In this document: positions 9,802 to 54,817 of the stretch, piece after piece | How positions within the stretch are numbered: position 1 is the first letter of the stretch | Layout: every line of letters starts with the position of its first letter | NCBI GenBank assembly: GCA_040755495.1 | Contig: JBFMAT010000014.1 | Coordinates: 7,764 to 71,763 of the forward strand | Source: Chloroflexota bacterium | GTDB lineage: Bacteria; Chloroflexota; Limnocylindria; Limnocylindrales; CSP1-4 | Direction: 5' to 3' | Length of the DNA stretch: 64,000 bases | Position numbers and translations under genes: made by a program | The notes under the pieces: model-generated | The model's database searches: none | Told to the model about the DNA's origin: nothing | Seen by the model: the letters and a program-made list of their open reading frames with translations, nothing else

Positions 9802-9839
9802 CCGTCAGCCGGGGCGGCCACCACGGGGGTACTGGCCCA

Positions 9840-11057: not shown

Positions 11058-11110
11058 CACGCTGAGGATAGCCGGGACGGCTCCACGGCTCGCCGGGCTA
11101 TGCTCCGCCC

Positions 11111-21040: not shown

Positions 21041-22504
<1,464 letters not shown>

Positions 22505-22560
22505 GGAGCGCCTCCGCCGACGCGTGGACCGGCGGCCACGGATGGGGTAGGGTCGCGGCG

Positions 22561-23352: not shown

Positions 23353-23353
23353 G

Positions 23354-24958: not shown

Positions 24959-24971
24959 CGGCAGCGGGCGG

Positions 24972-26972: not shown

Positions 26973-28030
26973 CGACGATGCTGCCCGGAACCCTGCCGGC
27001 CGCCGTTACGATCGTGGAGGTCGGCCCGCGGGACGGGCTCCAGAACGAGGCCGCCGCCATCGCGACCGAGGTGAAGCTCGGGTTCATCGAGCGTCTCGGC
27101 GCGGCCGGGCTGTCCGCCATCGAGGCGACGTCGTTCGTCCACCCGCGCGCCGTGCCACAGCTCGCCGACGCCGATGCGCTGCTGCCGGCGATCCGGCGCC
27201 GCCCCGGCGTCCGGTACCCGGTCCTCGCGCCCACGCCGCGCGGCCTCGAGCGCGCCCTGGCCGCCGGGGCGGACGACATCGCCGTGGTCATCGGCGCCAC
27301 CGACGCGTTCAACGGCGCGAACCTGCACCGGACGACCGCCTCAGCCATCGACGATGCTGCGAGGGTGATCGCGGACGCGACGGCGGCCGGCTGCCGGACG
27401 CGCGGCTACGTGTCGGTCGCCTTCGGCTGCCCGTACGAGGGGCCGGTCGCCCCGCAGGCGACGGCGGGGATCGCCGACCGGCTGCTCGACCTCGGCTGTG
27501 ACGAGATCAGCCTCGGCGACACGATCGGCGCGGCCACCCCCGGCGACGTCCACCGGGTCCTCGACGCGGTGCTGCCACGGGTGGACGCGGCGCGCGTCGG
27601 GCTCCACGCGCACGACACGCGCGGCCAGGCGCTCGCCGACGTGTACGCGGCGCTGGAGCGCGGCCTGGCCACCTTCGACAGCTCGGCCGGCGGGCTCGGC
27701 GGCTGCCCGTTCGCCGGCCCGGGCGCCGTCGGCAACCTCGCAACCGAGGATCTCGTGTTCTTCCTCGACGGGCTGGGCATCCGGCACGGGGTGGACCTCG
27801 ACGCCGTCATCGCCGCGGCCGCGTTCATCGAGGGCGCGGTGGGTCACGCGCTGCGCAGCCGGACCTACCTCGCCGGCGGCCGCCCGAGGACCCGCCCGCT
27901 GCCGGCGGCGACGGCCGGCACGGGCGCGGCGACGGCCGACACCGGCGCGGACCCGGCGCCCGGCCCGGCTGCCCGCCCGCTGCCCGACCCGGGGACCGGT
28001 GCCGGAACCGATCCCGGCCGGCCGGTGTAA
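26969..28030 (+). CDS. liuE: Hydroxymethylglutaryl-CoA lyase with about 55-aa low-complexity C-terminal tail
   Basis: VEVGPRDGLQNE is the HMGL signature, followed by a TIM-barrel core. ATGA overlap with liuD. The tail is rich in P/G/A/T. Confidence 0.85.
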   Translation: MTTMLPGTLPAAVTIVEVGPRDGLQNEAAAIATEVKLGFIERLGAAGLSAIEATSFVHPRAVPQLADADALLPAIRRRPGVRYPVLAPTPRGLERALAAGADDIAVVIGATDAFNGANLHRTTASAIDDAARVIADATAAGCRTRGYVSVAFGCPYEGPVAPQATAGIADRLLDLGCDEISLGDTIGAATPGDVHRVLDAVLPRVDAARVGLHAHDTRGQALADVYAALERGLATFDSSAGGLGGCPFAGPGAVGNLATEDLVFFLDGLGIRHGVDLDAVIAAAAFIEGAVGHALRSRTYLAGGRPRTRPLPAATAGTGAATADTGADPAPGPAARPLPDPGTGAGTDPGRPV

Positions 28031-30278: not shown

Positions 30279-31559
30279 ATGGCGGTCGGGCGGGCGACGG
30301 CGGCGTGGGGGCGGGGCTTCGATCCCGATCGCCTCGCCGCGATCGAGCTGCGGATGTGGAAGGCGTACTACCGGCGCCAGCCGCTGCGCCTCCTGGCGCT
30401 CCTCGTCCAGGCCAATCGCGAGCAGGCGCGGGCGTCGTGGCCGCGGGCCGTGGCGGCGGCGCTGTTCCTCGCCCGGGCCGCCGCGGGCTTCGGCCGCGCG
30501 ACCGGCGACTACGACCGCTTCCTGCCCGACATCGTGCGCGGCTACCGGGCGCTGGGGCTGCCGCCGGACGTCGACGCCGAGGCCGTGGCCCGTCGCGAGC
30601 TCCGCTGGTGGGTCGTGCGGCGCGAGATCGGGCTCGACGCGGGCGAGGCGGCCGGGGACGTGATCGCCGACCTGTACGCGACCCTGTACGGGGTGCCCAG
30701 GGCCGACGTCGCCGAGGCCGGCCGGCTGCGCGGGTTGGCGGCCGAGCTCCGCGATCGCGGCGCGGCGGACGACCCGGACGGTCCCCGGGGCGCCGGCCGC
30801 GCCTACTGGCCGGGGGTGGCGCGGCTGCTGCGCGAGTCGTACCGCAGCCTGGCCGCCGCGGTCCGCCTTCCCTCCGGCGCCCCCGCGACCGGCGCCCGGG
30901 ACGCCGAGCACGCCGGGACCGCCGAGCACGCCGACATCGCCGAGCACGCCGGGACCGCCGGGGACGGCGCGGCGCTCGCCGCCTCCCCCGCGGCCAACGA
31001 CTACCACTTCGTCACCACCTGGCGCCTGCCGGCGACGCGCGACGAGATCACCGACGTCCTCTCGGACGCCGCCGACCTCGCCCGCTGGTGGCCGTCGGTC
31101 TATCTCGAGGTCCACGTGCGCGAGCCGGGCGACGAGCGGGGCGTGGGCCGGGTGGTGGACCTCCACACCAAGGGCTGGCTGCCGTACACGCTGCGCTGGC
31201 GGTTCCGTGTCGTCGAGTCGCGGCCGCCGGAGGGGTTCACCATCGCGGCCGAGGGCGACTTCGCGGGCCGCGGGGTGTGGACCCTGCGCGAGGTGGCCGG
31301 TGCGGGCACGCCGGGCGGGCCGGTGACCGAGGTGGAGTACGACTGGCGGATCCGGGCCGAGAAGGGGCTCCTGCGCTCGCTGTCACCGGTGATGCGCCCG
31401 GTGTTCGGCGCCAACCACCGGTGGGCGATGGCGCGCGGCGAGGCGAGCCTGCGGCTCGAGCTCGCCCGGCGGCGGGCGGCGGGCGATGCCGCGATCCTGG
31501 CCGCGATCCCGGAGCCGCCGGGACCCACGTTCCCGCACGGCCGCCGGCGCCGCCGCTGA
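30279..31559 (+). CDS. Two-domain protein: N-terminal unknown domain + C-terminal SRPBCC (polyketide cyclase/START-like) domain, with AEHAGT repeat linker
   Basis: The C-terminus (YHFVTTWRLPATRDEITDVL...WWPSVYLEV...) is Polyketide_cyc2-like. An 18-bp tandem repeat x3 encodes AEHAGT/AEHADI. Confidence 0.55.
   Translation: MAVGRATAAWGRGFDPDRLAAIELRMWKAYYRRQPLRLLALLVQANREQARASWPRAVAAALFLARAAAGFGRATGDYDRFLPDIVRGYRALGLPPDVDAEAVARRELRWWVVRREIGLDAGEAAGDVIADLYATLYGVPRADVAEAGRLRGLAAELRDRGAADDPDGPRGAGRAYWPGVARLLRESYRSLAAAVRLPSGAPATGARDAEHAGTAEHADIAEHAGTAGDGAALAASPAANDYHFVTTWRLPATRDEITDVLSDAADLARWWPSVYLEVHVREPGDERGVGRVVDLHTKGWLPYTLRWRFRVVESRPPEGFTIAAEGDFAGRGVWTLREVAGAGTPGGPVTEVEYDWRIRAEKGLLRSLSPVMRPVFGANHRWAMARGEASLRLELARRRAAGDAAILAAIPEPPGPTFPHGRRRRR
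30903..30956. repeat. 18-bp in-frame tandem repeat x3 (GCCGAGCACGCCGGGACC / ...GACATC)
   Basis: Read directly from the sequence. Confidence 0.8.
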
Positions 31560-31570
31560 CGGGACGCCGG

Positions 31571-32527
31571 TCAGGCGGTCGCCCGGACCTCGGCGTCGGT
31601 GTCGCCCGGGCACACGCCGTACAGGTTCGCGCAGCCCACGAGGTGGCCCGGCTCGGCCTCCACCATCGCCGGCTGCCCGGCCGCCGGGGAGGCGGTGACG
31701 GTGTCGTGGTAGCAGCAGGCGTCGGCCTTGCCGGAGCGCGGCCCCGTGCCCCACTTCTCGTGCAGCCGGGGCACCGCCCCCAGCAGCTGCTGCGTGTACG
31801 GGTGGAGCGGGTTCCCGAACACCGCGGTCGTGGGGCCGCTCTCCACCACGCGGCCGCGCCGGAGGATGATCGCCCGCTCGCTGATGTAGTTGGCCAGCGA
31901 CAGGTCGTGGGTGATGAACAGGATCCCGAGGCCCCGGGCCTTGAGGTCGCCGAGCAGGTTGAGGACGTCGATCCGCGTCGACGCGTCGAGCATGCTGATG
32001 ATCTCGTCGGCGACCAGGAACCGGGTGTCGAGCAGCAGCGCCCGGGCGATGAGCACCCGCTGGAGCTGCCCGCCGCTGAGCTGGTGCGGGTACTTGTGGA
32101 GGACCTGGCCGCCCTCGAGCCCGACGCTCGCCAGCGCCTCGTCCACGCGCCGCCGCCAGCCGTCGTCCGCCTGGCCGCCGCCGAGGAGCCCGCGGAGCAG
32201 GCTGAACACGTGGTCGACCTTGAAGATCGGGTTGAACGAGCTGAACGGGTCCTGGAACACGCCCTGGACGACGCGGTAGTAGGCCCGCAGGGCGGGGCCG
32301 CGGAGCGCGGCGATGTCCTCGCCGTCGAGCGTGATCCGCCCGCCGTTGACCGAGATCAGGCGCAGGATCATCCGCCCGATCGTCGTCTTGCCGCTGCCGC
32401 TCTCGCCGATCAGCGACACCACCTCGCCCTGCGCGACCGAGAAGTCCGCCTCGCGCACGGCCACCAGCCGGCCGCCGCCGAAGGCGCCGATCCGGTAGGT
32501 CTTCGAGGCGCGTTCGAGGGTCAGCAT
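31571..32527 (-). CDS. ABC transporter ATP-binding protein (DppF/OppF-type)
   Basis: Walker A GESGSGKTT, signature LSGGQLQRV, and an oligopeptide-type C-terminal extension. Confidence 0.85.
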   Translation of the reverse strand: MLTLERASKTYRIGAFGGGRLVAVREADFSVAQGEVVSLIGESGSGKTTIGRMILRLISVNGGRITLDGEDIAALRGPALRAYYRVVQGVFQDPFSSFNPIFKVDHVFSLLRGLLGGGQADDGWRRRVDEALASVGLEGGQVLHKYPHQLSGGQLQRVLIARALLLDTRFLVADEIISMLDASTRIDVLNLLGDLKARGLGILFITHDLSLANYISERAIILRRGRVVESGPTTAVFGNPLHPYTQQLLGAVPRLHEKWGTGPRSGKADACCYHDTVTASPAAGQPAMVEAEPGHLVGCANLYGVCPGDTDAEVRATA

Positions 32528-33477
32528 CAGGCGACCTTCCAGCACGCCACGGCGTGCTCCGGGGCGACCTCGACGAACGGCGGCTGCGTCTCGCACTCGG
32601 CATCGGCGAGCGGGCAGCGGGTCCGGAACCGGCAACCGGTGGGCGGGTTGAGCAGCGACGGCGGCGCGCCCGGGATCCCGGCCAGCCGCGCGTCGGCGAA
32701 CCGCACGCCCATCTCCGGCAGGGACGAGATCAGCAGCCGCGTGTAGGGGTGGAGGGGCCGCTCCATCAGCTCCTCGGTGGGCGCCTTCTCGGCCAGGCGG
32801 CCCGCGTACATGATCGCGAGCGTGTCGGCGATCTGGTACAGGATCGAGACGTCGTGGGTGACCACGATCATGGCCCGGACGAACCCCTCGTCGCGGAACT
32901 GGACCAGCGTCTGGGCGACCGCCTTCTGGCTGGACACGTCGAGGGCCGAGGTGATCTCGTCCGCGATCAGCAGCGAGGGGTCGAGCAGCGTGGAGATCAC
33001 CATCACGACCCGCTGCTTCATGCCCCCCGACAGCTCGATCGGGTAGCGCCGCAGGACGTCCTCCTGGAGGCCCACCAGCGCCAGCCGCCGCCTGAGCTCG
33101 GCCTCGTACTCCTCGTGGCGGACGCCGCGCGACTCGAGCAGCTCGTCGATCATCCGCCCGATCCGCCGGGTGGGGTTGAGGGCGCTCATCGCGTACTGGG
33201 GGATGATCGAGACCAGCTTGTAGCGGTACTCGCGCATCGCGTCCCCGTCCGCGATCGGCAGCTCGATGCCGTCGAGGACGACGCTGCCGCCGACGTGGCG
33301 CATCCGGCCGTCGATCCGGATCAGGCTGTTGCCGAACGTGGACTTGCCACAACCGGACTCGCCGGCGAGGCCCATGATCTCGCCCTCGGCGACCCCCAGC
33401 GTGACGCCGTCGAGCGCCTTCACGTCGCCGGCCAGGGTCCGGTAGTAGACGCGCAGGTCCGTGACCTCGAGGCCCAT
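32527..33477 (-). CDS. ABC transporter ATP-binding protein (DppD/OppD-type)
   Basis: Walker A GESGCGKST, signature LSGGMKQRV, and a C-terminal CxxxxC-containing tail. Confidence 0.85.
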   Translation of the reverse strand: MGLEVTDLRVYYRTLAGDVKALDGVTLGVAEGEIMGLAGESGCGKSTFGNSLIRIDGRMRHVGGSVVLDGIELPIADGDAMREYRYKLVSIIPQYAMSALNPTRRIGRMIDELLESRGVRHEEYEAELRRRLALVGLQEDVLRRYPIELSGGMKQRVVMVISTLLDPSLLIADEITSALDVSSQKAVAQTLVQFRDEGFVRAMIVVTHDVSILYQIADTLAIMYAGRLAEKAPTEELMERPLHPYTRLLISSLPEMGVRFADARLAGIPGAPPSLLNPPTGCRFRTRCPLADAECETQPPFVEVAPEHAVACWKVA

Positions 33478-33478
33478 C

Positions 33479-34369
33479 TCAGGACTCCCGGAGCCGCGGG
33501 TTGAAGATCTCGTCGAGCCCCACGTTCATCACGTACAGCGAGCCGACGATGGCCGTGATGGCGACCCCCGGCGGGACGAACCACCACCACAGCCCCAGCT
33601 GCAGGGCGCTCCAGGCCACCGAGTTGTACATCATCAGCCCCAGCGACACGCCCGACGTCGGCCCCAGCCCGATGAAGTCCAGCGAGGCGGCGATCAGGAT
33701 CGAGCCGCCGAACAGCAGGATGAACGTCATGAACAGGTAGGAGCTCATGTTGGGCGCGATCTCGCCGAAGATCACCCGCCAGGCCGGGACGCCGCTGATC
33801 CGGGCCAGGTCCACGAACTCGCGGGCGTTGAGCGAGAACGTCTGGGCGCGGATGGCGCGGGCCGCCCAGGGCCACGAGGTGAGCCCGATGAACGCGGCCT
33901 CGATCACGATCCCGCGGGCCTTGAAGAACGCGGTCACGACCACCAGCAGGGCGATGGTGGGGATCACCAGCACGATGTTGGTGACCATGTTCAGGATCTC
34001 GTCCGTGATCCCGCCGCGGTAGCCCGCGACGAAGCCCACGGTCACCCCGATCAGCGCGGCGATGCCGCCGCCGGCCAGGCCCACGGCGAACGTCGAGCCG
34101 AGGCCGTACAGGAACTGGGCGAACACGTCCTGCCCGAAGGTGGTGGTCCCGAACCAGTACTCGGCCGAGGGGGCGGCGCCCAGCGGGCCGACGAACGCGT
34201 TGGGATCGCCGGGCCGGATCGTGGGGCCCAGCGCGGCGAGCACGAGGAACGCGGCGATGATCGCCGTGGAGATCAGGATCTTGCGGCTGCGCAGGACGAA
34301 GTACCGGACCTCGCGCGCCCGCCCGACCGACTCGCCCGCCTTCGGGATCTGGCCGGCCAGGGCGGTCAC
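33479..34369 (-). CDS. ABC transporter permease (DppC/OppC-type)
   Basis: Six-TM BPD_transp_1-type sequence. GTG start at 34369 overlapping the upstream stop. Confidence 0.85.
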   Translation of the reverse strand: MTALAGQIPKAGESVGRAREVRYFVLRSRKILISTAIIAAFLVLAALGPTIRPGDPNAFVGPLGAAPSAEYWFGTTTFGQDVFAQFLYGLGSTFAVGLAGGGIAALIGVTVGFVAGYRGGITDEILNMVTNIVLVIPTIALLVVVTAFFKARGIVIEAAFIGLTSWPWAARAIRAQTFSLNAREFVDLARISGVPAWRVIFGEIAPNMSSYLFMTFILLFGGSILIAASLDFIGLGPTSGVSLGLMMYNSVAWSALQLGLWWWFVPPGVAITAIVGSLYVMNVGLDEIFNPRLRES

Positions 34370-35358
34370 GCCGTGCCCCCGCTCATCCCGACCCGCGTCC
34401 GCGGGTCCAGCAGGACGTAGGCGATGTCGACCAGGAAGTTCGCGATCAGCGTACCCACGATCACGAACAGGAAGATGCCCTGGAGCAGGAAGTAGTCCTC
34501 GTTCTGGACGGCCGCCAGCAGGAGCTTGCCGAGTCCCGGGTAGCTGAACACGATCTCGGTCACCAGCGCGCCCGCGACGATCACGCCCAGCTGCAGCGCG
34601 AGGCCGGTGACCTGGGGCAGCACGGCGTTGCGGAACGCGTAGCGCCGGACGAGGCCGCTGGGCGCACCCAGGGCGTCGAGGTACTTGGAGTAGTCGGCGT
34701 CCAGCTCGTAGATGATCATGTTGCGCATCCCGATCGCCCAGCCGCCGAACATGACCATGAACAGCGACAGGAACGGCATCACCCAGTGCGCGAACAGGTC
34801 CATCGCGAACGCCCAAGTGAGCGACGGCTCGAGCGCGTAGCTGTAGCCGCCCGAGATGGGGAACACCCGGAGGACCGATCCCAGGACCCAGGCGACCATG
34901 ATCGCGAGCCACATGTAGGGCGCGGCGCTCAGGATGTAGCCGACGGGCAGGATCGCGTCGTCCAGGTACCGTCGGCGGGCGGCGAGCGCCCCGAACTTGT
35001 TGCCGGCCCACCAGCTGAGGAGGATGGCCGGGATCAGCAGGCCGAGGGTGTACGGCAGCGCGGCCAGGATCACGTCGGTCACGGGACGCCCGGACAGGTA
35101 CACGCTGCGGCCCAGGTCACCCTGGAGCAGCGATCCCCAGAAGTTGAGGTACTGCTGCCAGATCGGCTGGTCGAGGCCGAACAGCGCGTTGTAGTAGGCG
35201 ATCAGGTCCGGGACCGCCTCGGGCGCGACCTGGTGCCGCGAGAGCAGGCTCTGGACGGGGTCCCCGGGCATGAAGCGGGGGATCATCCAGTTGACCGTGG
35301 CCGCGACGAAGAAGGTCAGCCCGTAGATGAGGAGCTTGCGGCCGAAGTAGCGTCGCAC
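34366..35358 (-). CDS. ABC transporter permease (DppB/OppB-type)
   Basis: VRRYFGRKLLIYGLTFFVAATVNWMIPRF N-terminus typical of DppB. The start was refined to the GTG at 35358. Confidence 0.8.
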   Translation of the reverse strand: MRRYFGRKLLIYGLTFFVAATVNWMIPRFMPGDPVQSLLSRHQVAPEAVPDLIAYYNALFGLDQPIWQQYLNFWGSLLQGDLGRSVYLSGRPVTDVILAALPYTLGLLIPAILLSWWAGNKFGALAARRRYLDDAILPVGYILSAAPYMWLAIMVAWVLGSVLRVFPISGGYSYALEPSLTWAFAMDLFAHWVMPFLSLFMVMFGGWAIGMRNMIIYELDADYSKYLDALGAPSGLVRRYAFRNAVLPQVTGLALQLGVIVAGALVTEIVFSYPGLGKLLLAAVQNEDYFLLQGIFLFVIVGTLIANFLVDIAYVLLDPRTRVGMSGGTA

Positions 35359-35393
35359 TCGGTCTCCCGCTGGGTCGGGCGAGCCCCGCAAGC

Positions 35394-35422
35394 GGCTCCC
35401 CCGCCCGTGGGGCGGGGGAGCC
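35394..35422. other. Perfect 13-bp-stem hairpin (GGCTCCCCCGCCC gtg GGGCGGGGGAGCC) between substrate-binding-protein and permease genes
   Basis: Read directly. There is no T-run, so it is probably an mRNA-stability or attenuation element rather than an intrinsic terminator. Confidence 0.5.
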
Positions 35423-35438
35423 TCGGAGGAGCGGGGTT

Positions 35439-37205
35439 CTAGGGCTGGACCAGCTCGAGCTGGGTCAGCATCTTGACGGCACCCATCTGCCAGTACCCGT
35501 TCCAGGTGGCCGGCAGGATCTGGTTCGCCCCGTCCGACGGCCAGTTGGTCCAGACCACGTTGCTGACCTGGGACCACATCCCGTTGTACCAGAGCGGGAT
35601 CACCGGCATCTCGGTGAGCGAGATCTTCTGCAGCTTGCTGGTGATGGCCTGCATCGCCGCCACGTCGTCGACGGGCGTCTTGTCGAGCTCCTGGACGAGC
35701 GCCCAGGCCTCGGGGTTCTCGTAGCCACCGTAGTTGCGGTTCTTGCCGGCGCCCTCCATGAGCGGCATCCGGAACATGTAGTCGTAGTAGGTCCAGGGCG
35801 TGTTCGAGATCTGGACCTCGTTGTTGACGACCAGGTCGAAGTCGAAGTTGTTGCGGGCATCGACGAGGCCGTTGTAGTCGACGATCCGGGCCTCGGCGTT
35901 GATGCCGGCCGCGATCAGGCTCGAGATGATCACGTCACGCGCGGCCTCCCAGTCGGACCAGCCGGTGGGGACCATGATCGTGAGTTTGATCGGCGAGCCG
36001 TCCTTGTTGGTGTAGAACCCGTCGCCGCCCTTCTTGTAGCCCGCGGCGTCGAGCAGCGACGCGGCCTTGGCCGGGTCGTACTTGAAGCCGAGCGCGTCGC
36101 GCTGGGCGGTGTCGACGTACTTCTCCCAGGTGGGCAGCAGGCCCGTCGGGTCGGCGGCCTTGACGATGTTGCCGTACACCTTGTTGACGATGTCCGGGAC
36201 GTTGACCGCGTGGGCGATCGCGAGCCGGAACTGCGGGTCGTCGAGCGGCGGCTTCTTGTCGTTGGTGACCAGCCACGCCGTGTTGCCCGACAGCATGTAC
36301 GGCGCCTCGGGGAAGTAGGTGCTCACGTACCCGTTGTCCACCAGGGTGGCGATGCCGGGCAGGAAGTTGTTGGACAGGTCGATGCCGCCCTGCATCAGCA
36401 GGCCGAGCGCGACGTTGTTGGCGCCGTTGACGATGTCGACGATGTACTTGGGCTTGGCCTCGAGGCCGAGTGCCGTCTTCGCCCACCAGGTCTCGTTCCG
36501 CTCGTAGACCATGCGGTCCTCGGCGGCGGTCTTGTACTTGTAGGGGCCCGTGCCCACGCCGTTGGCGTTGGTGTCGGTCAGGATGTCCTCGTTGGCCTTG
36601 GACTCCCAGATGTGCTTGGGCAGGATCGGCTTGTCGTACGTCCACAGCGCCCACTCCTGGTAGGCGGGGTCACTGAACTTGACGACAACGGTGGACGGGT
36701 CGGTGGCCGTGGCGTCGGTGACGTAGTCCCAGATGTTCCAGCCGACCGCCTTGATCTTGCCCAGGCCGATGGTGAACGCCACGTCGTCGGCGGTGAACGG
36801 GGTCCCGTCAGACCAGGTCACGCCCGAGCGGACCTTGATGGTGTAGGTCGTGGGGTCGGTCCAGGTCGCGCTCTCGGCGAGCCAGGGATCGAACGTGTCG
36901 GCGAGCGGGTCGTACAGGAACAGGCTCTCGTACTGGAGCCCGACGGTGCCCATCGCCGCATTCGGGTCGAGCGGGTTCCACGTCGACGGCGGACCCCACT
37001 GCTTGCCCGTGGTGTACAGGGTCTCGTTGCGCGGGTAGGTCTCGGCGCCCGAGGACGGCGCCGGCGTCACCTCGGCCGATGCCCCGGGCGTCGCGGGGGC
37101 GACGGTCTCGCCTCCCGGGCTCGCGGTCTGGCCGCTCGTGCCGCACGCGCCGACCACGATGCTCGCGATCGCGAGCAGGGCGGCGAGCCGCTTCGTGTAT
37201 GCCAT
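35439..37205 (-). CDS. ABC transporter substrate-binding lipoprotein, family 5 (peptide/oligosaccharide-binding)
   Basis: MAYTKRLAALLAIASIVVGAC lipobox, 588 aa with an SBP_bac_5-like body. An RBS (ggaggag) lies upstream. Confidence 0.85.
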   Translation of the reverse strand: MAYTKRLAALLAIASIVVGACGTSGQTASPGGETVAPATPGASAEVTPAPSSGAETYPRNETLYTTGKQWGPPSTWNPLDPNAAMGTVGLQYESLFLYDPLADTFDPWLAESATWTDPTTYTIKVRSGVTWSDGTPFTADDVAFTIGLGKIKAVGWNIWDYVTDATATDPSTVVVKFSDPAYQEWALWTYDKPILPKHIWESKANEDILTDTNANGVGTGPYKYKTAAEDRMVYERNETWWAKTALGLEAKPKYIVDIVNGANNVALGLLMQGGIDLSNNFLPGIATLVDNGYVSTYFPEAPYMLSGNTAWLVTNDKKPPLDDPQFRLAIAHAVNVPDIVNKVYGNIVKAADPTGLLPTWEKYVDTAQRDALGFKYDPAKAASLLDAAGYKKGGDGFYTNKDGSPIKLTIMVPTGWSDWEAARDVIISSLIAAGINAEARIVDYNGLVDARNNFDFDLVVNNEVQISNTPWTYYDYMFRMPLMEGAGKNRNYGGYENPEAWALVQELDKTPVDDVAAMQAITSKLQKISLTEMPVIPLWYNGMWSQVSNVVWTNWPSDGANQILPATWNGYWQMGAVKMLTQLELVQP

Positions 37206-37267
37206 TGGCCGTTCTCCTCCACTGGTTCCCGTGATGCTTCGCGCGCTCGCGGAGGTGGTCTGCGATC

Positions 37268-38278
37268 TCAAGCCCGTGTCCCACCTCCCACCGTCGATTG
37301 CCGGATGACGAGCTCGGTCGGCAGCAGCACCCGGCGCGGTGCGCCGTCGCGGTCGCCGATCAGCTGGAACAGGCAGTTCACGGCCTCGGCCCCCTGGTCC
37401 CGGACGCCCTGGCGGATCGTCGTGAGCGGGGGATCCATGTGGGAGGCGAACTCGAGGTCGTCGAAGCCGGCGAGGGCGACGTCCTCGGGGATCCGCAGCC
37501 CGCGGGAGCGGATCACCTCGAGGGCGCCCAGCGCCGTCGAGTCGTTGGCGCAGAAGATGGCGTCGGCCCCCCGGTCGAGCAGGGCCTCGGCGCCCGCCGC
37601 GCCGGACGGGGTGTTGAAGTCGCCGTCCACCAGGAGGCCGTCGATCGGGAGCCCGGCCCGGTTCATCGCCCGGGTGTAGCCCGCGATCCGGTCCTCGCCG
37701 GCGACGGTCCGCCGCATGCCCGAGATGTGGCCCACCCGGCGCCGCCCGATCCCGATCAGGTGGGTCGTCATCGCGTCGGCAGCGTGGACGTTGTCGACGT
37801 CCACGTAGCTGGCAGACCGGTCCGCCTTGCGGTGCCCGACCAGCACCGTCGGCAGCGACGACGCGAGCAGGCCGTCGACGAGCGGGTCGTCGAGGTTGTG
37901 GGCCGTGACGATGACACCGTCGAGGAGGCCCATCGACAGGATCGTGTCGAGCGTCTCCTGCTTGGTCCGGTTGCCCAGCCACAGCATCATGCCGGCGGCG
38001 ACGTCCGCGAGGGCGCCGCTCATGCCCTGCATCAGCTGCCCGAAGTACGGGTCCTGGAACAGCAGGTGCGAGTCGATGTGCATCACCACGCCCACGACGC
38101 CGGACCGACCGGAGGCCAGGGAGCGGGCCGCGAGGTTGGGCCGGAAGTTCGTCTCGACGAGGACGCTCTGGACCCGCCGGCGCGTCCGCTCGGACACGCT
38201 GCCGCCGTTGATGACCCGCGAGACGGTGGCGCGCGAGACCCCGCTCAGGCGGGCGAGCTCGTCGATCGTCCTGGCCAT
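37268..38278 (-). CDS. LacI-family transcriptional regulator
   Basis: N-terminal HTH TIDELARLSGVSRATVSRVING plus a periplasmic-binding-fold effector domain. Confidence 0.85.
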   Translation of the reverse strand: MARTIDELARLSGVSRATVSRVINGGSVSERTRRRVQSVLVETNFRPNLAARSLASGRSGVVGVVMHIDSHLLFQDPYFGQLMQGMSGALADVAAGMMLWLGNRTKQETLDTILSMGLLDGVIVTAHNLDDPLVDGLLASSLPTVLVGHRKADRSASYVDVDNVHAADAMTTHLIGIGRRRVGHISGMRRTVAGEDRIAGYTRAMNRAGLPIDGLLVDGDFNTPSGAAGAEALLDRGADAIFCANDSTALGALEVIRSRGLRIPEDVALAGFDDLEFASHMDPPLTTIRQGVRDQGAEAVNCLFQLIGDRDGAPRRVLLPTELVIRQSTVGGGTRA

Positions 38279-38317
38279 CCGGATAGGGCTCCTCGGTGCA
38301 CGGGGACGCCGGCTGGA

Positions 38318-38333
38318 TTGGAAGCGCTTCCAA
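38318..38333. promoter_or_regulatory. Perfect 16-bp palindrome TTGGAAGCGCTTCCAA (LacI-family operator candidate); second inverted repeat GACAACgcgGTTGTC at 38344-38358
   Basis: Located in the divergent intergenic region between the lacI-family gene start (38278) and the GH1 start (38437). The central CG is flanked by a TGGAA/TTCCA motif like LacI/GalR-type operators. Confidence 0.5.
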
Positions 38334-38436
38334 AGTAGACGTCGACAACGCGGTTGTCAAGCGTCAGAATGGACATCCGCGGTACGATGTGGACGCGCAA
38401 TCCGATGAGACCGCTTTCATTCGAGAGGAGCTGAGG

Positions 38437-39768
38437 GTGCCGGAGGAGCCGTTCCCGCAGGGGTTCGCCTGGGGCGCCGCCACCGCCTCGTACCAGGTCG
38501 AGGGCGCCGTGACGGCGGACGGCCGCGGGGAGTCCATCTGGGACCGGTTCGCGCATACGCCCGGCCGGGTGGCCGGCGGCGACACGGGCGACGTCGCCTG
38601 CGACCACTACCACCGCTACCGCGAGGACGTGGCGCTGATGGCCGAGCTGGGCCTCGACGCCTACCGGTTCTCGGTGGCCTGGCCGCGGGTCGTGCCCACC
38701 GGCACGGGGGCCGTGAACGCCGCCGGGCTGGACTTCTACGACCGGCTGGTGGACGAGCTGTGCGCCCGGGGGATCGCCCCCCACGCGACGCTGTACCACT
38801 GGGACCTGCCCCAGGCGCTCGAGGACGCGGGCGGCTGGCCGGTGCGCGCCACCGCCGAGGCGTTCGCCGCCTATGCGGACGCCGTGGCCCGGCGGATCGG
38901 CGACCGGACGGCGGCGATCGCCACGATCAACGAGCCGTGGTGCCCGAGCTACCTCGGGTACCGGGTCGGCGTCCACGCGCCCGGCCGCGCCGAGCCCGAC
39001 GCCGCCCTGGCGGCCGCCCACCACCTGCTGGTCGGGCACGGGCTGGCGATCCAGGCGATCCGCGCCGCCGCCCCCGGGACGCCGGCCGGGATCGTCCTCA
39101 ACTTCGAGCCCAAGCGGCCGGCCACGGCGCACCCGCTGGACCTCGAGGCGGCCGCGGTCGAGCACGACCAGTACAACCGCTGGTTCCTCGACCCGCTCAC
39201 CGGCGGCGACTATCCGGAGGCCGGCGCCCGCGCCTGGGGCTGGCGCCGGTCCGAGGTCCTGCCGGGCGACCTGGCGCTGGTCGCGGCGCCGATCGACTTC
39301 ATGGGCATCAACTACTACACCTGCCGGACCGTCCGCTCCCCGCTGCTGCCGCCGCTCGACGCGCCGGACGTCCCGCCCGAGCAGACCTCGCAGGGCTGGG
39401 AGGTGCACCCCGAGGGGCTCACCGAGGTCCTCGAGCTGGTGCACTCGCGGACCGGCGACCTGCCCCTGTACGTGACCGAGAACGGTGCGGCCTACGACAC
39501 CCCCGCCGGTGGCGACCGGACCCACGACCCCGACCGGGTCAGCTACCTGCGGCGGCACGTGGCGGCGGCGCGGGCGGCGATCGCGGCGGGCGTGCCCCTG
39601 AAGGGCTACTTCGTGTGGTCGCTGTTCGACAACTTCGAGTGGCACGAGGGGTACGCGCACCGGTTCGGGATCGTGGACGTGGACTTCGCGACGCAGGAGC
39701 GACGGGTGCGCGACAGCGGCCGCTACTGGGCGTCGCTGGCCGCGGCGCAGCACGCGGTGGCGGCGTGA
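38437..39768 (+). CDS. bglB: Glycoside hydrolase family 1 beta-glucosidase
   Basis: [14 protein letters not shown], catalytic TINEPW (acid/base Glu) and YVTENG (nucleophile Glu). GTG start with a gagaggag RBS. Confidence 0.9.
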
Positions 39769-40736
39769 GCGTCGCGGCGCCCATCCCGTGGGAGGAGCGC
39801 GCCGCGGGCTCCGCCGCGGTCGTCTGGCGGTCGAGCCGCAACCCGATCATCCCGCGCGACCTGCTGCCCCGCTCGAACAGCATCTTCAACTCGGCGGTGG
39901 TCCCGTTCCGCGACGGGTTCGCCGGCGTGTTCCGGGTGGACGACACCGTCCGGACCATGAACGTCCACGCCGGCCGCAGCCGCGACGGCGTCGCCTGGGA
40001 CATCGACCCCGCGCCGATCCGGTTCCTGCCGGCGGACGACCGGGTCCGCGAGATCCAGGCGACGTTCACGCACGCCTACGACCCCCGGGTGACGTGGCTC
40101 GAGGACCGCTGGTACGTGACCTGGTGCAACGGGTATCACGGGCCGACGATCGGGATCGCGTGGACGCACGACTTCGAGACGTTCCACCAGCTGGACAACG
40201 CGTTCCTGCCGTTCAACCGCAACGGCGTGCTGTTCCCGCGCCGGATCGGCGACCGCTACCTGATGCTCAACCGGCCCAGCGACAACGGGCACACCGCGTT
40301 TGGCGACATCTACCTCTCGGAGAGCCCGGACCTCGTCCACTGGGGTCGCCACCGGCACGTGCTGGGTCCCGTGCCCTGGACCTGGGAGTCCACGAAGGTC
40401 GGCCCCGGCCCGACGCCCATCGAGACCGACGAAGGCTGGCTGCTGATCTACCACGGCGTCCTGACGTCGTGCAACGGGTTCGTCTACTCGATGGGGGCGG
40501 CGCTGCTGGACCTCGACCAGCCGTGGCGGGTCATCGGCCGCGGCCGCGACTACCTCCTCTCGCCGCAGGTGGCGTACGAGCAGGTGGGGGACGTGCCCAA
40601 CGTGGTGTTCCCCTGCGCCGCGCTCGTCGACCGGGACGCGGACCGGGTGTCGATCTACTACGGGGCCGCGGACACCGTGACCTGCCTCGCCCACGCGCAC
40701 CTGTCCGAGCTGGTGGCCTTCGCCCGCGGCCGGTGA
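39765..40736 (+). CDS. Glycoside hydrolase family 130 (beta-mannoside/glycoside phosphorylase)
   Basis: [21 protein letters not shown]...[19 protein letters not shown]...GWLLIYHGV matches the GH130 beta-propeller signature. GTGA overlap with bglB. Confidence 0.75.
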
Positions 40737-40989
40737 GGTCGTCACGGCGCGGTTGCGGGTCCATCGAGACTCGCGTCCGGCGAGCGCACGCGCGCCGACC
40801 GCGGAGACGTGCTCGACGACGCCGTGATGCCCGCGGTCTACGCCGTCGCCGCCGCCGATGCGGCAGCCGAGTGTGACGGGCTGTCTCCGGCGGGACGTTC
40901 GCCGAACGGCTCGCCACCGAGGGGCGTTGATGGACGCCGGCGACCAATGAGGTTCGTCCGCGGGTAGCGTCAGGAACGCGGCTTGGCGG

Positions 40990-41310
40990 TCAGGGCTGCG
41001 GCGCTGTGCTTGGCACCGGCTCGGAGCGCAGGCAGAGCGTGCCATCCGGCCGCTGGAACGTCGCGTCGGTTCCTTCCGGGCAACTCCCACTCCCGCGAAC
41101 CCAGGCGACAACGACGTGGGAGTGCGGGCCGGAGCACGGAACGCTCCTGGTCACCCAGTCGCCGTCCGGCGTCCGGTAGTTCACGCACGATCCGTCCGGG
41201 AAGGTCTCGGCGATCGCATCTCGGCAGGCCGCGACGGAGCCGGCCAGCAGCACGGCCGCGGGGCAGACACGCGAACGGCGCACCGGTCCCACCCGTCGTC
41301 GGCTGACCAT
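40990..41310 (-). CDS. Small Cys-rich secreted protein (signal peptide; 6 Cys)
   Basis: MVSRRRVGPVRRSRVCPAAVLLAGSVAAC signal-like N-terminus, then spaced Cys residues. 106 aa. Confidence 0.4.
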   Translation of the reverse strand: MVSRRRVGPVRRSRVCPAAVLLAGSVAACRDAIAETFPDGSCVNYRTPDGDWVTRSVPCSGPHSHVVVAWVRGSGSCPEGTDATFQRPDGTLCLRSEPVPSTAPQP

Positions 41311-41588
41311 TACGCCGCCCCTGGCGTGCGGTTCGGAGCGCGGCGGCGCAGCGAGATGAACACGGCGACGGACACGACGAGCGACACGAGGCCGCCGACG
41401 ACCGGCACCCACAGGTCGTAGCCCGGGGCAGCGAGCGCCGTCAGCGTGACCAGCACGAGGTAGAGGACGAACGCGGTGACGAACGGACTCGAACCGACGC
41501 GCGGCCATCTCGGCGACAGGGCTACGACCAAGACGCCCACGAGGATCGGTAGGGCGATCTGCCCGAGGATGACCCACAAGAGGTCCAT
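41310..41588 (-). CDS. Small membrane protein (3 TM), unknown
   Basis: Hydrophobic 92-aa ORF immediately upstream of the Cys-rich protein. Confidence 0.4.
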   Translation of the reverse strand: MDLLWVILGQIALPILVGVLVVALSPRWPRVGSSPFVTAFVLYLVLVTLTALAAPGYDLWVPVVGGLVSLVVSVAVFISLRRRAPNRTPGAA

Positions 41589-41755
41589 CGTCTCTCACGC
41601 CCCCACTTCGCGCTGCGCGCAACGGCGCTCGCCTGACCTGATCGTCCGCTGTCGCCCTGGGATGGTCAAGGCGCCGTTCTTCCTGTGCCGTGGTCCCGAA
41701 CCTCAACCCCCTGGGGAACACGGCGGCTCCGGCAGGCCGGACCTAGCAACGGTCC

Positions 41756-42232
41756 TCACACTCGGCTGCCGCATCGGCGCCGCCGTCCTCGGATCAGCGC
41801 GTGCGCGGCAGCGACGGCGAACCCGACTGCCGCGCCCACGACCACTGCGGTCAGGAGCGCCCACCCATCCAGCGGTCGGGGCACCGAGAGCCATTGACCG
41901 AGTGAGTCCAACCCCTCGAGCGTGCGCGGCCACAGGGCCAGGAACAGGACACCGCCCGCCACGGCCCCAATGGCCGTTGAGGCGACGGAATCGAGCCGGT
42001 CACGAGGTCCAACGGGAACGAGCACGACGAGCGCGAGTGCGATGGTCAGTGCGAGCGCGGGTGTCCCGAGCCCGACGCTAGAGAACAGGCCCGTGTGCAT
42101 CGCACACTCGACCTCGGTGACGTTGAGGGGGCCGAGGCACATCGCCACGCCGCCCCCGCCGACCGTGAGCGCGACGGGAGCGCCGAGCAGCACGGCGATT
42201 GCCGCGACGACGAGGCGGCTGTAATGGCGCAT
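41756..42232 (-). CDS. Membrane protein, unknown
   Basis: Hydrophobic ORF. The start was chosen at MRHYSRLVVAAIAVLL. Confidence 0.35.
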   Translation of the reverse strand: MRHYSRLVVAAIAVLLGAPVALTVGGGGVAMCLGPLNVTEVECAMHTGLFSSVGLGTPALALTIALALVVLVPVGPRDRLDSVASTAIGAVAGGVLFLALWPRTLEGLDSLGQWLSVPRPLDGWALLTAVVVGAAVGFAVAAAHALIRGRRRRCGSRV

Positions 42233-43447: not shown

Positions 43448-44908
43448 CTACCCCTCGGGCACCCCGGGCAGGGCGCCCGTCAACCCGAACGGTGCCCCCG
43501 CCTCGCGGACGCGGTCGGCCATCGCGGCCACCACGGCCGGGTCCAGCTCCGGCAGGCGGTGGGTCGCCTCGATCTCCGCCACGCGGGCCCGGGCACGCCC
43601 GAAGGCGTCGAGGCCGCCGGCGTCGAGCCAGGCCCGCCGCGAGCTGCGGTCGATGATCCCGGACGGCAGGAACTGCTCGCCCCGGAACAGGCGCCGCGTG
43701 TCCTCCAGCTCCAGGAACCGGCCCTCGGGACCGGCCGCCTCGAAGAACGCCGTCGCGAGCGTCTCGGTCGGGGTGCCCACGCCGCGCAGCAGCCGCTGGA
43801 CCATGCCGATCGCATCCGCGTCGATGACCAGCTTCTCCGCGCTCTGGGCGAGCAGGAAGTCGAGCATCCCGGCCCCCGAGATCATGTCGATCCCGGCGAG
43901 GCCGCCGACGAGCGCCGTCATCCCGGTCTCGAGGCCGGCCTGCGCGTCGATCACCTTCGCGTCCGTCGCGCCCAGGTAGCCGTGGACCGGCAGGCCCAGC
44001 GACTTGCCCACGGCCGCGTACCCGGCGTCGATCAGCGCCGTCTCGATGGCGCCCATCGGCGTGGAGCCGGTCCGCATGTCCACGATCGTCGGGGCACCGC
44101 CCCACACGATCGGGCCGCCGGGCGCGGCGAGCTGGTGGAGGACGATGCCGGCCAGCGTCTCGGCGGCGTGCTGGACGATTGCCCCGACCAGGGTCACGGG
44201 CGCCGCCACGCCGGCCAGGGGCATGGAGATCAGCTCCGCCGGGACGTGCGCCCGACCGAGGTCGATGACGTTGCGGCAGGCGAACTCGGACCAGGTCAGC
44301 GGCGGCGACGGGCAGACGTCGAACACGGCCCGCGGGCGCTCGGCGAGCGCGTCCCGGCCGCCGGCGTCGATCGCGAGCAGCTCCAGCATCACGCCGGATC
44401 CCCGGGCGCTGAACGCCCCGGTCACGATCGGCTTGGACGAGTGGAGGAGCACCACGAACAGCCGGTACAGGTCGCCGATCTCGGTCGGCACGTCGTGGCA
44501 CACGACCGCCGTCGACACCGCGTCGTACGCGGGGAGCGCGTCCGCGACTTGGATCAGCCGGGCGAGGTCGGCGGCCTGCGACGTCCGGGTGTCGAGCGTC
44601 GCGGGGTCCAGCACGGCCACCCCGGACGAGCCGGGGTCGAAGTGGACGGCGCCCGTGCCGTAGCGGACGGCCGCACGCCCGGCCCGGTCGAACAGGTCGA
44701 ACGAGTGCGGGACGGTGTCCAGCGCCCGGCGGACCATCGCCTCGGGGATCGCGATCCGGTCCCCGGCCGCGGTGGCGCCGGCGCCGGTCAGCAGCGCGAC
44801 CGCCTCCGGCTCCTCGACCCGGATCCCGGGCCTGCGGAGCAGCTGCAGGGCCTCGTCGAGGATGCGCTCGATGAGGGCCGGATCGAGGAGCTCGAAGCGG
44901 GGCCGCAT
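43448..44908 (-). CDS. MttB-family (trimethylamine methyltransferase superfamily) non-pyrrolysine methyltransferase, paralog 1
   Basis: 486 aa, uninterrupted (no in-frame TAG), full-length MttB-like TIM-barrel sequence. The start ATG overlaps the upstream stop. Confidence 0.85.
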   Translation of the reverse strand: MRPRFELLDPALIERILDEALQLLRRPGIRVEEPEAVALLTGAGATAAGDRIAIPEAMVRRALDTVPHSFDLFDRAGRAAVRYGTGAVHFDPGSSGVAVLDPATLDTRTSQAADLARLIQVADALPAYDAVSTAVVCHDVPTEIGDLYRLFVVLLHSSKPIVTGAFSARGSGVMLELLAIDAGGRDALAERPRAVFDVCPSPPLTWSEFACRNVIDLGRAHVPAELISMPLAGVAAPVTLVGAIVQHAAETLAGIVLHQLAAPGGPIVWGGAPTIVDMRTGSTPMGAIETALIDAGYAAVGKSLGLPVHGYLGATDAKVIDAQAGLETGMTALVGGLAGIDMISGAGMLDFLLAQSAEKLVIDADAIGMVQRLLRGVGTPTETLATAFFEAAGPEGRFLELEDTRRLFRGEQFLPSGIIDRSSRRAWLDAGGLDAFGRARARVAEIEATHRLPELDPAVVAAMADRVREAGAPFGLTGALPGVPEG

Positions 44909-46443: not shown

Positions 46444-46445
46444 CG

Positions 46446-47111
<666 letters not shown>

Positions 47112-47171
47112 CGGTCTCTCCTCGTGGTCCGGGTCCCGGATGGTGGGTCGTAGTTGGGGATTGGCTGGGCG

Positions 47172-48627: not shown

Positions 48628-48770
48628 TGCAGGAGCACGGACGCCTCCCGCGAAGGGGTCGATGGCGTGCAGCGTCCCGCGTCCGGGCCCGCCCGCGATA
48701 GGGCGGAAGGTCCCCCCCGAAGGGTCCGACGGACCATCCGGCGTCGGGGCCGGCAGGCGAGACTGTCCCC

Positions 48771-50386: not shown

Positions 50387-50395
50387 GGGACCCCG

Positions 50396-53007: not shown

Positions 53008-53058
53008 GGCCGCCATGCGTCGCCGGAGGCCAACGCCAGGGGCTGGCGCCGGGCTTGC

Positions 53059-53808: not shown

Positions 53809-53913
53809 CGCGAGATCGTAGCGCCCGATCCGGTCGCTTTGCCCCTGCCATCCGGGCGCCGGGTGTGGCACGGTGGACGCACGCCCGAATCCGTCGGGCG
53901 GGGAGGACGGTCG

Positions 53914-54384: not shown

Positions 54385-54393
54385 CGCGCGGCG

Positions 54394-54747: not shown

Positions 54748-54817
54748 TCGGGTCGCCTCCTGGGCCGGCGCGGGCGGCCCGGCACCTGCCGCACCCGCCC
54801 GCGACCCGCCGGCACCC

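Follow-up and report, generated by a model that had tools for sequence, protein, structure and literature searches.

A Dpp/Opp-type ABC importer encoded with a GH1 β-glucosidase and a GH130 phosphorylase in a soil Chloroflexota: a probable cassette for β-1,4-linked manno- and gluco-manno-oligosaccharides

Organization of the locus

The cassette is composed of eight genes arranged in two divergent groups, within positions 31571–40736 of a 64,000-nt stretch of DNA (hereafter the window; Table 1). The leftward group contains lacI and the five genes of an ABC transporter, and the rightward group contains GH1 followed by GH130. Gene boundaries were taken from third-position GC frame analysis and family assignments from Pfam profiles; gene content and family membership were thus computed directly. 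All of the elements lie where the original prediction had placed them, including the shared orientation of lacI and the transporter, the divergence of the two enzyme genes and the GTGA coupling between them. The host is an uncultured, mesophilic soil Chloroflexota of high GC content and is Limnocylindria-like; it does not belong to the actinobacteria.

Table 1. Positions of the genes and regulatory features in the window
Feature	Position	Strand	Description
ATPase2 (DppF/OppF-like)	31571-32527	-	318 aa; Pfam ABC_tran 91 bits, partial oligo_HPY 37 bits
ATPase1 (DppD/OppD-like)	32527-33477	-	316 aa; Pfam ABC_tran 70 bits, oligo_HPY 72 bits
Permease2 (DppC/OppC-like)	33479-34369	-	296 aa; BPD_transp_1 79 bits
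Permease1 (DppB/OppB-like)	34366-35358	-	330 aa; BPD_transp_1 123 bits, GC3 frame plot
SBP, family-5 lipoprotein	35439-37205	-	588 aa; SBP_bac_5 212 bits
LacI-family repressor	37268-38278	-	336 aa; LacI HTH 52 bits, Peripla_BP_3 122 bits
Predicted operator O1	38318..38333		perfect 16-bp palindrome TTGGAAGCGCTTCCAA, central CG, divergent promoter region
Predicted leftward promoter	38332..38360	-	TTGACA, 17-nt spacer, TACTTT
GH1-GH130 promoter-like site	38342..38370	+	TCGACA, 17-nt spacer, CAGAAT
Tentative operator O2	38402..38415		TGAGACCGCTTTCA, GH1 leader; centre 83 bp from O1 centre
GH1 β-glucosidase	38437-39768	+	443 aa, cytoplasmic; Glyco_hydro_1 500 bits
GH130 β-1,4-mannoside phosphorylase	39765-40736	+	323 aa; Glyco_hydro_130 232 bits
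GH3 C-terminal fragment	62735-63925	-	Glyco_hydro_3_C, Fn3-like

Several of the genes are tightly packed. The TGA stop of GH1 is overlapped by the GTG start of GH130 (GTGA), an arrangement of translational coupling, and the stop of permease 1 is overlapped by the GTG of permease 2 in the same way. The ATPase1 stop and the ATPase2 ATG share a single nucleotide. lacI leads the predicted leftward operon and is separated from the downstream SBP gene by 62 nt; this gap contains no operator-like site. A GH3 gene had also been noted at the end of the window. The gene is real, but it is a C-terminal fragment located 22 kb away behind unrelated genes and does not belong to the locus.

The transporter

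The transporter has the architecture of the PepT class (Dpp/Opp-type, TC 3.A.1.5), with a family-5 solute-binding protein (SBP) and, as four distinct proteins, two permeases and two ATPases, and each of the components named in the original prediction is backed by a Pfam profile (PF00496 SBP_bac_5 for the SBP, cutoff 32 bits). Both ATPases carry oligo_HPY tails that score above the Pfam cutoff of 27.1 bits. In ATPase1 the C-terminal tail is complete, includes a Cys motif and scores 91 bits against TIGR01727, above the cutoff of that model. For Permease2, the best NCBIfam matches are to models of the Opp4C and NikC type, none of which reaches its cutoff. The N-terminus of the SBP, MAYTKRLAALLAIASIVVGAC, contains a lipobox (VVGAC) in which A20 and C21 are invariant across 11 homologues.

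The closest SBP matches in the PDB are 4pft, 1vr5 and 4pfu, the Thermotoga maritima mannoside binders TM1223/TM1226 (E 1e-139 to 1e-136; 44% identity over 527 aa). The Thermotoga cellobiose binder TM0031 follows at E 1e-62 and the Vibrio chitooligosaccharide binders (CBP) at 1e-33, whereas every solved relative outside the sugar binders is at 1e-19 or weaker, with NikA, DppA and OppA at 1e-12 to 1e-8. The nearest relatives are therefore members of the sugar-binding cluster C-IV (TmMnBP1/2, TmCeBP, Vibrio CBP; TM1223/TM1226 are assigned to this cluster in PMC8449061) and not peptide, nickel or opine binders. In VhCBP, W363, D365 and W513 form conserved ligand contacts, a Trp-x-Asp motif plus a C-terminal Trp (PMC8449061). 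In our alignment to TM1223 and the homologues, W416-S-D418-W of the SBP lines up with GWTDW of TM1223, and W539 and W544 are invariant.

The resemblance to Opp-type manno- and cello-oligosaccharide importers of Thermotogae proposed in the original prediction is thus one of homology rather than mere analogy, since the SBP is closest to the Thermotoga mannoside and cellobiose binders. The accompanying idea that a peptide-type transporter had been 'recruited to' a glycan locus was overstated: the transporter family is ancestrally sugar-specific and travels with its enzymes as a cassette. Because the listed ligands of TM1223/TM1226 include mannose, mannobiose, mannopenta- and mannohexaose, and cello-, laminari- and xylo-oligosaccharides (PMC8050422), SBP homology supports β-linked oligosaccharides broadly and not mannosides alone.

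The GH130 phosphorylase and GH1 β-glucosidase

Profile search bears out the GH130 call (232 bits; cutoff 26), and the best PDB matches are UhgbMP (E 5e-145; 65% identity), RaMP2 (E 2e-129) and TM1225 (1vkd; E 5e-124). These place the enzyme in the β-1,4-mannoside phosphorylase group (former subfamily GH130_2, meta-node C2). Active-site residues were compared directly with the diagnostic list for GH130 in PMC7660257, in which a Tyr/Arg pair predicts β-1,4 linkage, and all of them are retained. D106 corresponds to the catalytic proton donor D104 of UhgbMP, and there is no carboxylate base. R170 and H230 preserve the phosphate-binding pair R168/H231; this Arg/His pair occupies the positions at which GH130 hydrolases carry Glu (comparison with PMC4599007 and PMC7660257). 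Y105 and R152 preserve the +1 subsite pair Y103/R150, and R57 and D303 correspond to R59 and D304. The protein aligns with the UhgbMP start from residue 3 onward and has no signal peptide or other hydrophobic leader, indicating a cytoplasmic enzyme. The group assignment spans enzymes specific for mannooligosaccharides and for Man-β-1,4-GlcNAc, which sequence does not tell apart (PMC7660257).

The GH1 protein scores 586 bits against the TIGR03356 BGL model (curated cutoff 478.5) and contains the acid/base motif NEP at 165 and the nucleophile motif TENG at 348. Its top PDB matches are β-glucosidases without exception. We found no endo-mannanase, cellobiose 2-epimerase, GH130_1, phosphomannomutase or phosphomannose isomerase in the 64-kb window, so attack on the polymer and the further metabolism of mannobiose and mannose-1-phosphate must depend on genes outside it or on other organisms. 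GH94 is also absent from the window, and no GH18, GH20, GH85 or GlcNAc catabolic gene is present in or near the cassette.

The LacI regulator and its predicted operators

The regulator consists of an N-terminal HTH domain (PF00356) and a periplasmic-binding-like effector domain (PF13377). The divergent region contains a palindrome, O1, whose sequence TTGGAAGCGCTTCCAA has no other exact match in the window. The columns of O1 are conserved when the intergenic regions are aligned; 26 of 28 related loci retain it ahead of lacI, and it agrees at 12 of 14 positions with the Streptomyces CebR box TGGGAGCGCTCCCA (PMC4358012); the exact CebR sequence occurs in some relatives (L047). It would overlap the -10 and +1 of the lacI–transporter promoter, whose position we infer from conservation: the TTGAC does not vary among the 15 intergenic regions aligned and lies within a conserved TTGACA-17-TAnnnT pattern. 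The -10 match is weak, and a consensus scan did not pick this promoter up. The same scan returned the rightward promoter-like site as the only sigma-70-like match in 31300-41400 (0.3 expected from shuffles).

A tentative second site, O2, differs from O1 by 4 mismatches but lines up with TGG[AG]AGCGCTT[TC]C sites of relatives, several of which have a second site near GH1 with at most 2 mismatches. From these alignments O2 is probably a weaker operator.

Conservation of the cassette

The cassette is present in about 22 related metagenome-assembled genomes, in differing genomic contexts and with flanking genes that vary between loci; its recurrence argues that the arrangement is not due to chance. 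In the close Chloroflexota loci, LacI is encoded next to the transporter in all 22, GH1 in 21 and GH130 in 20, whereas in the distant loci GH130 is kept more often than GH1 (17/22 versus 8/22). A GH94 gene stands beside the cassette at 10 of the 22 close loci and at 12 of the 22 distant ones. The encoded enzyme is of the cellobiose-phosphorylase type, with 1040 bits to that family and 453 to chitobiose phosphorylase. In ten cultured actinomycetes, a homologous transporter has a GH2 β-mannosidase gene after it (E 1e-131 to solved β-mannosidases), and in seven of these a type I phosphomannose isomerase is encoded nearby. This gene neighbourhood is an independent pointer to mannosides.

Proposed function and alternatives

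Together, these features point to a self-contained catabolic cassette for β-1,4-linked manno- and gluco-manno-oligosaccharides, the breakdown products of glucomannan or mannan, a reading to which we assign a probability of about 0.75. The lipid-anchored SBP would capture oligosaccharides outside the cell and pass them to the importer formed by the two permeases and two ATPases. In the cytoplasm, GH130 would use phosphate to cleave non-reducing β-mannosyl residues as α-mannose-1-phosphate, and GH1 would take off β-glucosyl residues. A single LacI-family repressor bound to the palindrome in the divergent region may silence both operons, with derepression by a disaccharide of the mannobiose or cellobiose type. 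The ligand range and the inducer are predicted from homology. Either gluco- or manno-substrates may predominate, because the operator is CebR-like and TM1223/TM1226 also bind cello-oligosaccharides.

The same two observations would fit a system primarily for cellobiose and cellodextrins, in which cellobiose would act as inducer for a CebR-type repressor, GH1 (joined by GH94 in relatives) would be the main enzyme and GH130 a minor accessory. The canonical β-glucosidase and the cellobiose type of the relatives' GH94 agree with such a system, but GH130 is conserved as well as GH1 in close loci and better in distant ones, the actinomycete transporters are paired with β-mannosidase and phosphomannose isomerase, the SBP is far nearer to the mannoside binders than to the Thermotoga cellobiose binder, and the window itself has no GH94; we consider this unlikely. 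Scavenging of the N-glycan core (Man-β-1,4-GlcNAc, either alone or bearing a second GlcNAc) from glycoproteins of plants or fungi, by a GH130 acting like UhgbMP or BT1033, is less likely still. It draws on the identity of the top GH130 match, a β-1,4-mannosyl-N,N'-diacetylchitobiose phosphorylase (PMC7660257), and on the chitooligosaccharide binders within the SBP cluster (PMC8449061). These are only distant relatives of the SBP, however, and UhgbMP-group enzymes are promiscuous, with mannooligosaccharides among their substrates (PMC7660257). The partner of GH130 is a β-glucosidase, the GH94 of relatives is not of the chitobiose type, and the enzymes of GlcNAc-glycan breakdown listed above are missing in and near the cassette.

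A genuine peptide or nickel importer that merely neighbours sugar genes is very improbable. A source pipeline names homologues 'peptide/nickel transport system substrate-binding protein', and the best NCBIfam matches are of the NikA and Opp4A type, but all are far below cutoff (NikA 98 bits versus 393). In E-value, the solved peptide and nickel binders trail the mannoside binders by about 120 orders of magnitude, linkage of the transporter to GH130, GH1, GH94 or GH2 is conserved in two phyla, and the sugar-type LacI regulator is predicted to be co-transcribed with the transporter. The SBP relatives and GH130 residues instead support uptake and phosphorolysis of β-mannosides or β-glucosides, as originally predicted, and the SBP does not fall among di- or oligopeptide binders.

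Comparison with known systems

The cassette is a clear relative of the T. maritima mannan locus TM1219-TM1227, which has already been studied, and offers no new mechanism. Both combine a PepT-type transporter (two permeases and two oligo_HPY ATPases) and homologous SBPs with a cytoplasmic mannoside phosphorylase (TM1225 in Thermotoga). The Thermotoga SBPs are a duplicated pair, TM1223 and TM1226, whereas a single SBP is present here. The Thermotoga regulator is ROK-type, in contrast to the LacI-family protein and CebR-like palindrome of the Chloroflexota locus, which further differs in the coupling of GH1 to GH130, the lack of an endo-mannanase and a mesophilic, high-GC soil host.

The β-mannan loci of Roseburia intestinalis use a binding protein, RiMnBP, that is a different protein from the PepT family-5 SBP described here and belongs to another SBP family. 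Their β-glucosidases are GH3 rather than GH1, and they also include an epimerase, GH130_1, esterases, GH36, GH113, phosphomannomutase and an extracellular GH26, none of which is in the cassette. The intracellular steps are alike: glucose is trimmed by β-glucosidases and mannose-1-phosphate released by GH130_2, a division of labour on glucomannan oligosaccharides that has been demonstrated in Roseburia (PMC6385246). The UhgbMP/RaMP2 group shares the retained catalytic, phosphate-binding and +1-subsite residues, but the context here (GH1, and GH94 in relatives) resembles that of plant-glycan genes rather than a Bacteroides N-glycan locus. In the Streptomyces CebR system, CebE is a CUT1-type SBP of another family and the ATPase, MsiK, is shared; GH130 is lacking. 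The CebR–CebEFG–BglC system (PMC4358012, PMC4890002) is similar in placing a LacI-family repressor over an oligosaccharide ABC importer and a GH1 enzyme, with a near-identical 14-bp palindrome (TGGGAGCGCTCCCA versus TGGAAGCGCTTCCA); the regulators are likened by operator and domain family.

The 'peptide/nickel' label carried by hundreds of homologues is almost certainly wrong, and these proteins are sugar importers. A single transporter family has been joined to phosphorolytic enzymes in Chloroflexota or to hydrolytic ones in actinomycetes. More tentatively, the cassette may be a portable, enzyme-minimal 'scavenger' module with which abundant, largely uncultured soil Chloroflexota (Limnocylindria-like) cross-feed on glucomannan and cellulose oligosaccharides freed by other degraders. 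In that case, rewiring would have put a Thermotoga-type mannoside importer under a CebR-type regulator, and the back-end of that transporter family would vary by phylum, phosphorolytic (GH130 with or without GH94) or hydrolytic (GH2 with phosphomannose isomerase). For these soil Chloroflexota, a class that is little known and hard to culture, the cassette provides a testable prediction of carbon sources: β-mannan or glucomannan oligosaccharides and cellodextrins.

Organization of the cassette

The eight genes of the cassette span exactly the interval originally predicted for them (31571–40736), and every family call is backed by Pfam. The GC content of the window (68–78%) makes raw ORF lists noisy; coding frames were chosen by third-position GC (GC3), and start codons were set from context. 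From permease 1 to ATPase 2 the genes overlap or abut, with GTGA, a 1-nt gap and TGATG at the successive junctions. Both ATPases carry the oligo_HPY tails claimed for them, and the claimed GTGA coupling of the glycosidase genes is seen as an overlap of the GH1 TGA stop with the GH130 GTG start. The solute-binding protein (SBP) opens with a signal peptide, and in its lipobox (…IVVGAC) the Ala–Cys pair is invariant among homologues. A terminator scan at the cassette ends yielded no convincing candidate.

Positions of the cassette genes, regulatory sites and neighboring features in the window
Feature	Position	Strand	Basis or remark
ATPase 2	31571–32527	-	GC3 frame, Pfam; oligo_HPY tail
ATPase 1	32527–33477	-	GC3 frame, Pfam; oligo_HPY tail
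Permease 2	33479–34369	-	GC3 frame, Pfam
Permease 1	34366–35358	-	GC3 frame, Pfam
Family-5 SBP	35439–37205	-	GC3 frame, Pfam
lacI	37268–38278	-	GC3 frame, Pfam
GH1	38437–39768	+	GC3 frame, Pfam; divergent from lacI
GH130	39765–40736	+	GC3 frame, Pfam; divergent from lacI
Palindrome	38318–38333		putative operator
Inverted repeat	38342–38360		
Rightward promoter-like site	38342–38370		consensus scan
Weaker conserved site	38402–38415		GH1 leader
Surface-polysaccharide cluster	274–12811		
Lyase and leucine-catabolism set	21092–28030		upstream
Variable segment	40737–42331		directly 3' of GH130
Methyl-transfer cluster	43448–56275		
Operator-like sequence	62590–62603		two mismatches
GH3 fragment	62735–63925		cut by window end

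The SBP resembles mannoside binders

The closest solved relatives of the SBP are the mannoside-binding proteins TM1223/TM1226 of T. maritima (4pft, 1vr5 and 4pfu; E 1e-139 to 1e-136), with 44% identity over 527 residues. The Thermotoga cellobiose binder TM0031 follows at E 1e-62, and Vibrio chitooligosaccharide binders at E 1e-33. The five sugar binders correspond to the recognized SBP cluster C-IV (PMC8449061), and manno- and cello-oligosaccharides are listed among the ligands of TM1223 and TM1226 (PMC8050422). When placement among peptide binders was checked, nickel, dipeptide and oligopeptide binders proved far weaker matches (E 1e-16 to 1e-8), and all NCBIfam peptide and nickel models scored far under their cutoffs.

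The GH130 and GH1 enzymes

The GH130 protein shows 65% identity to UhgbMP (E 5e-145), and two further solved phosphorylases, RaMP2 and TM1225, are also very close. With the diagnostic residue list of PMC7660257, the proton donor (D106), the phosphate-binding pair (R170 and H230) and the +1-subsite residues (R57, Y105, R152 and D303) are all found to be conserved. The family call is confirmed by Pfam, and the Y/R pair predicts a β-1,4-mannoside phosphorylase, a class in which mannooligosaccharide-specific and Man-β-1,4-GlcNAc-specific members of the UhgbMP group are indistinguishable by sequence (PMC7660257). The GH1 protein contains NEP and TENG motifs and, at 586 bits, passes the curated β-glucosidase equivalog cutoff of 478.5.

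The divergent regulatory region

The 158-bp intergenic region between lacI and GH1 contains a perfect 16-bp palindrome, TTGGAAGCGCTTCCAA, a putative operator and the sole exact copy in the window. Of 28 related loci, 26 carry this palindrome with at most two mismatches, 35–55 bp ahead of lacI. When 15 intergenic regions are aligned, TTGAC(A) is invariant and is followed, after a spacer of 17 nt, by a TAnnnT element. That element borders on or overlaps the palindrome, which would therefore cover −10 and +1 of the leftward promoter. The same alignment contains a further conserved site, weaker and degenerate in the window copy, and a consensus scan returned one rightward promoter-like site. An inverted repeat, TCGACAAC-GCG-GTTGTCAA, sets the −35-like hexamers of the two divergent promoters face to face; its TTGACA half is invariant among relatives and the other half is not. 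The palindrome agrees with the Streptomyces CebR box TGGGAGCGCTCCCA (PMC4358012) at 12 of 14 positions, a resemblance between the boxes. No operator was found in the lacI–SBP gap, which is only 62 nt long, so the operator-controlled promoter most likely drives lacI and the transporter genes as one transcript.

Genomic surroundings

The cassette is an island amid unrelated functions. Upstream lie a sigma factor gene and a tryptophanase-like β-eliminating lyase followed by a leucine-catabolism set (enoyl-CoA hydratase, carboxyltransferase, biotin carboxylase/BCCP and an HMG-CoA-lyase-like protein). A surface-polysaccharide biosynthesis cluster near the start of the window encodes a Wzy-like O-antigen ligase, GT4 glycosyltransferases, epimerases/dehydratases, a Wzz-like protein, a PIG-L deacetylase, a nucleotidyltransferase and a TPP enzyme. 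Downstream are an HTH protein, a corrinoid-dependent methyl-transfer cluster, a GGDEF-HD protein and a two-component system. The methyl-transfer cluster resembles a demethylation system for quaternary amines of the glycine-betaine type, with two MttB-family methyltransferases, a B12-binding corrinoid protein, a RACo reductive activase, an MTHFR-like protein, a pterin-binding methyltransferase, a DUF1638 protein and a URO-D-like protein; neither MttB reading frame has an in-frame stop and there is therefore no sign of pyrrolysine. The segment directly 3' of GH130 is a strain-variable insertion or deletion, missing in the two closest relatives (40855–41777 from locus L004, 40737–42331 from locus L005), and its small hydrophobic ORFs have no Pfam match. 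No mannanase, epimerase, GH130_1, GH94, GH2, phosphomannomutase or phosphomannose isomerase gene is present within the window.

The GH3 gene noted at the window end is real, but it is a C-terminal fragment (C-terminal domain and Fn3-like domain) and lies 22 kb away, beyond the methyltransferase cluster, the GGDEF protein and the two-component system; we do not count it as part of the locus. An operator-like sequence 3' of GH3, TGGGAGCGCTTCTA, falls inside a histidine-kinase gene and is within chance expectation. GC content is lower in the cassette (68–70%) than in its flanks (74–78%), but third-position GC (0.96–0.99) equals that of the flanks. The lower value thus reflects amino-acid composition and was discarded as evidence of recent horizontal transfer.

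Related loci in two phyla

Exact-sequence matching of the SBP, LacI and GH130 proteins gave no hit, and relatives were traced through homologues. A genome-collection scan with SBP alignment placed the nearest relatives in Chloroflexota MAGs (SBP 98% and 97% identical), one labeled ‘Chloroflexi bacterium RBG_16_72_14’ and others Candidatus Limnocylindrales. The two nearest MAGs share the window flanks at 92–96% nucleotide identity, which assigns the window to a Limnocylindria-like member of the Chloroflexota and rules out the actinobacterial origin suggested by its 74% GC. The eight cassette proteins were then compared with 83 loci by tblastn, counts being restricted to loci with enough flanking DNA. 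Gene arrangement is constant in the close group, and the flanking genes vary by locus.

Occurrence of sugar-related genes at related loci
Group	Loci	GH130	GH1	LacI	GH94
Close Chloroflexota (SBP at least 67%)	22	20	21	22	10
Distant Chloroflexota (SBP below 67%)	22	17	8	10	12
Actinomycetota-labeled	18	1	1	1	1

The GH94 of the relatives is of the cellobiose-phosphorylase type (1040 bits, versus 453 to chitobiose phosphorylase). It adjoins the cassette after GH130 or after the ATPases, at 3906–6413 in related loci L002/L024 and in about 20 others.

In ten cultured actinomycete species (genera Acrocarpospora, Sphaerimonospora, Herbidospora, Nonomuraea and Actinorugispora), a GH2 gene comes directly after the ATPase genes, and its best solved relatives are all β-mannosidases (E 1e-131). 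GH2 stands in place of GH130/GH1 at related loci L079 (15981–19638), L061, L063, L064, L066, L069, L073, L074, L075 and L081. The SBP of the actinomycete transporter is ~52% identical to the window SBP, and a type I phosphomannose isomerase is encoded nearby in 7 of the 10. One transporter family is thus linked to β-mannoside breakdown in two phyla, with a different enzymology in each.

Proposed function and alternatives

The original prediction of uptake and phosphorolysis of β-mannosides or β-glucosides, not peptides, is supported and sharpened by SBP and GH130 homology and the conserved sugar context. The lipoprotein SBP would capture oligosaccharides with β-1,4-mannosyl and β-1,4-glucosyl residues, such as glucomannan or mannan fragments and possibly cellodextrins, which would enter through the PepT-type ABC transporter. 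GH130 is expected to free mannose-1-phosphate from non-reducing mannosyl ends and GH1 to trim glucosyl ends, a division of labor shown experimentally for a β-glucosidase and GH130_2 in Roseburia intestinalis (PMC6385246); in relatives, GH94 would phosphorolyse cellobiose. The LacI repressor may hold off both operons as long as an inducing disaccharide is absent. The neighborhood encodes no extracellular endo-enzyme, suggesting oligosaccharide scavenging or endo-enzyme genes elsewhere.

The CebR-like box, the GH1 gene, the GH94 of relatives and the promiscuity of Thermotoga binders could also describe a system mainly for cellodextrins, which we consider unlikely, as GH130 is tightly conserved and the actinomycete loci have a mannosidase and isomerase context. 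Import of the N-glycan core (Man-GlcNAc) is more improbable still: the top GH130 match is the one observation in its favor, no GlcNAc-related gene is present and the GH94 is of the cellobiose type. With such score gaps and a conserved sugar context, a true peptide/nickel importer is effectively excluded. A system for β-1,4-linked manno- and gluco-oligosaccharides is our preferred reading.

Among known systems, the T. maritima TM1219–TM1227 mannan locus comes closest: its SBP and GH130 are homologous to those of the cassette and its transporter has the same architecture, in agreement with the resemblance to Thermotogae importers claimed earlier. The cassette differs from the T. maritima locus in host phylum (Chloroflexota), in its LacI regulator with a CebR-like box, in the coupled GH1 and in the lack of a mannanase. 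Glycoside transport by PepT-family members is already recognized. According to a 2026 review, Bacillota, Actinomycetota, Pseudomonadota and Thermotogae account for over 90% of the characterized glycoside ABC transporters; Chloroflexota did not turn up in a text search of the review (PMC13543919). The present assignment corrects a widespread mis-annotation of transporter homologues and provides a predicted substrate for uncultured soil Chloroflexota. The related loci also reveal one transporter family on which phosphorolytic and hydrolytic back-ends swap, and the cultivable actinomycete strains could serve as experimental stand-ins.
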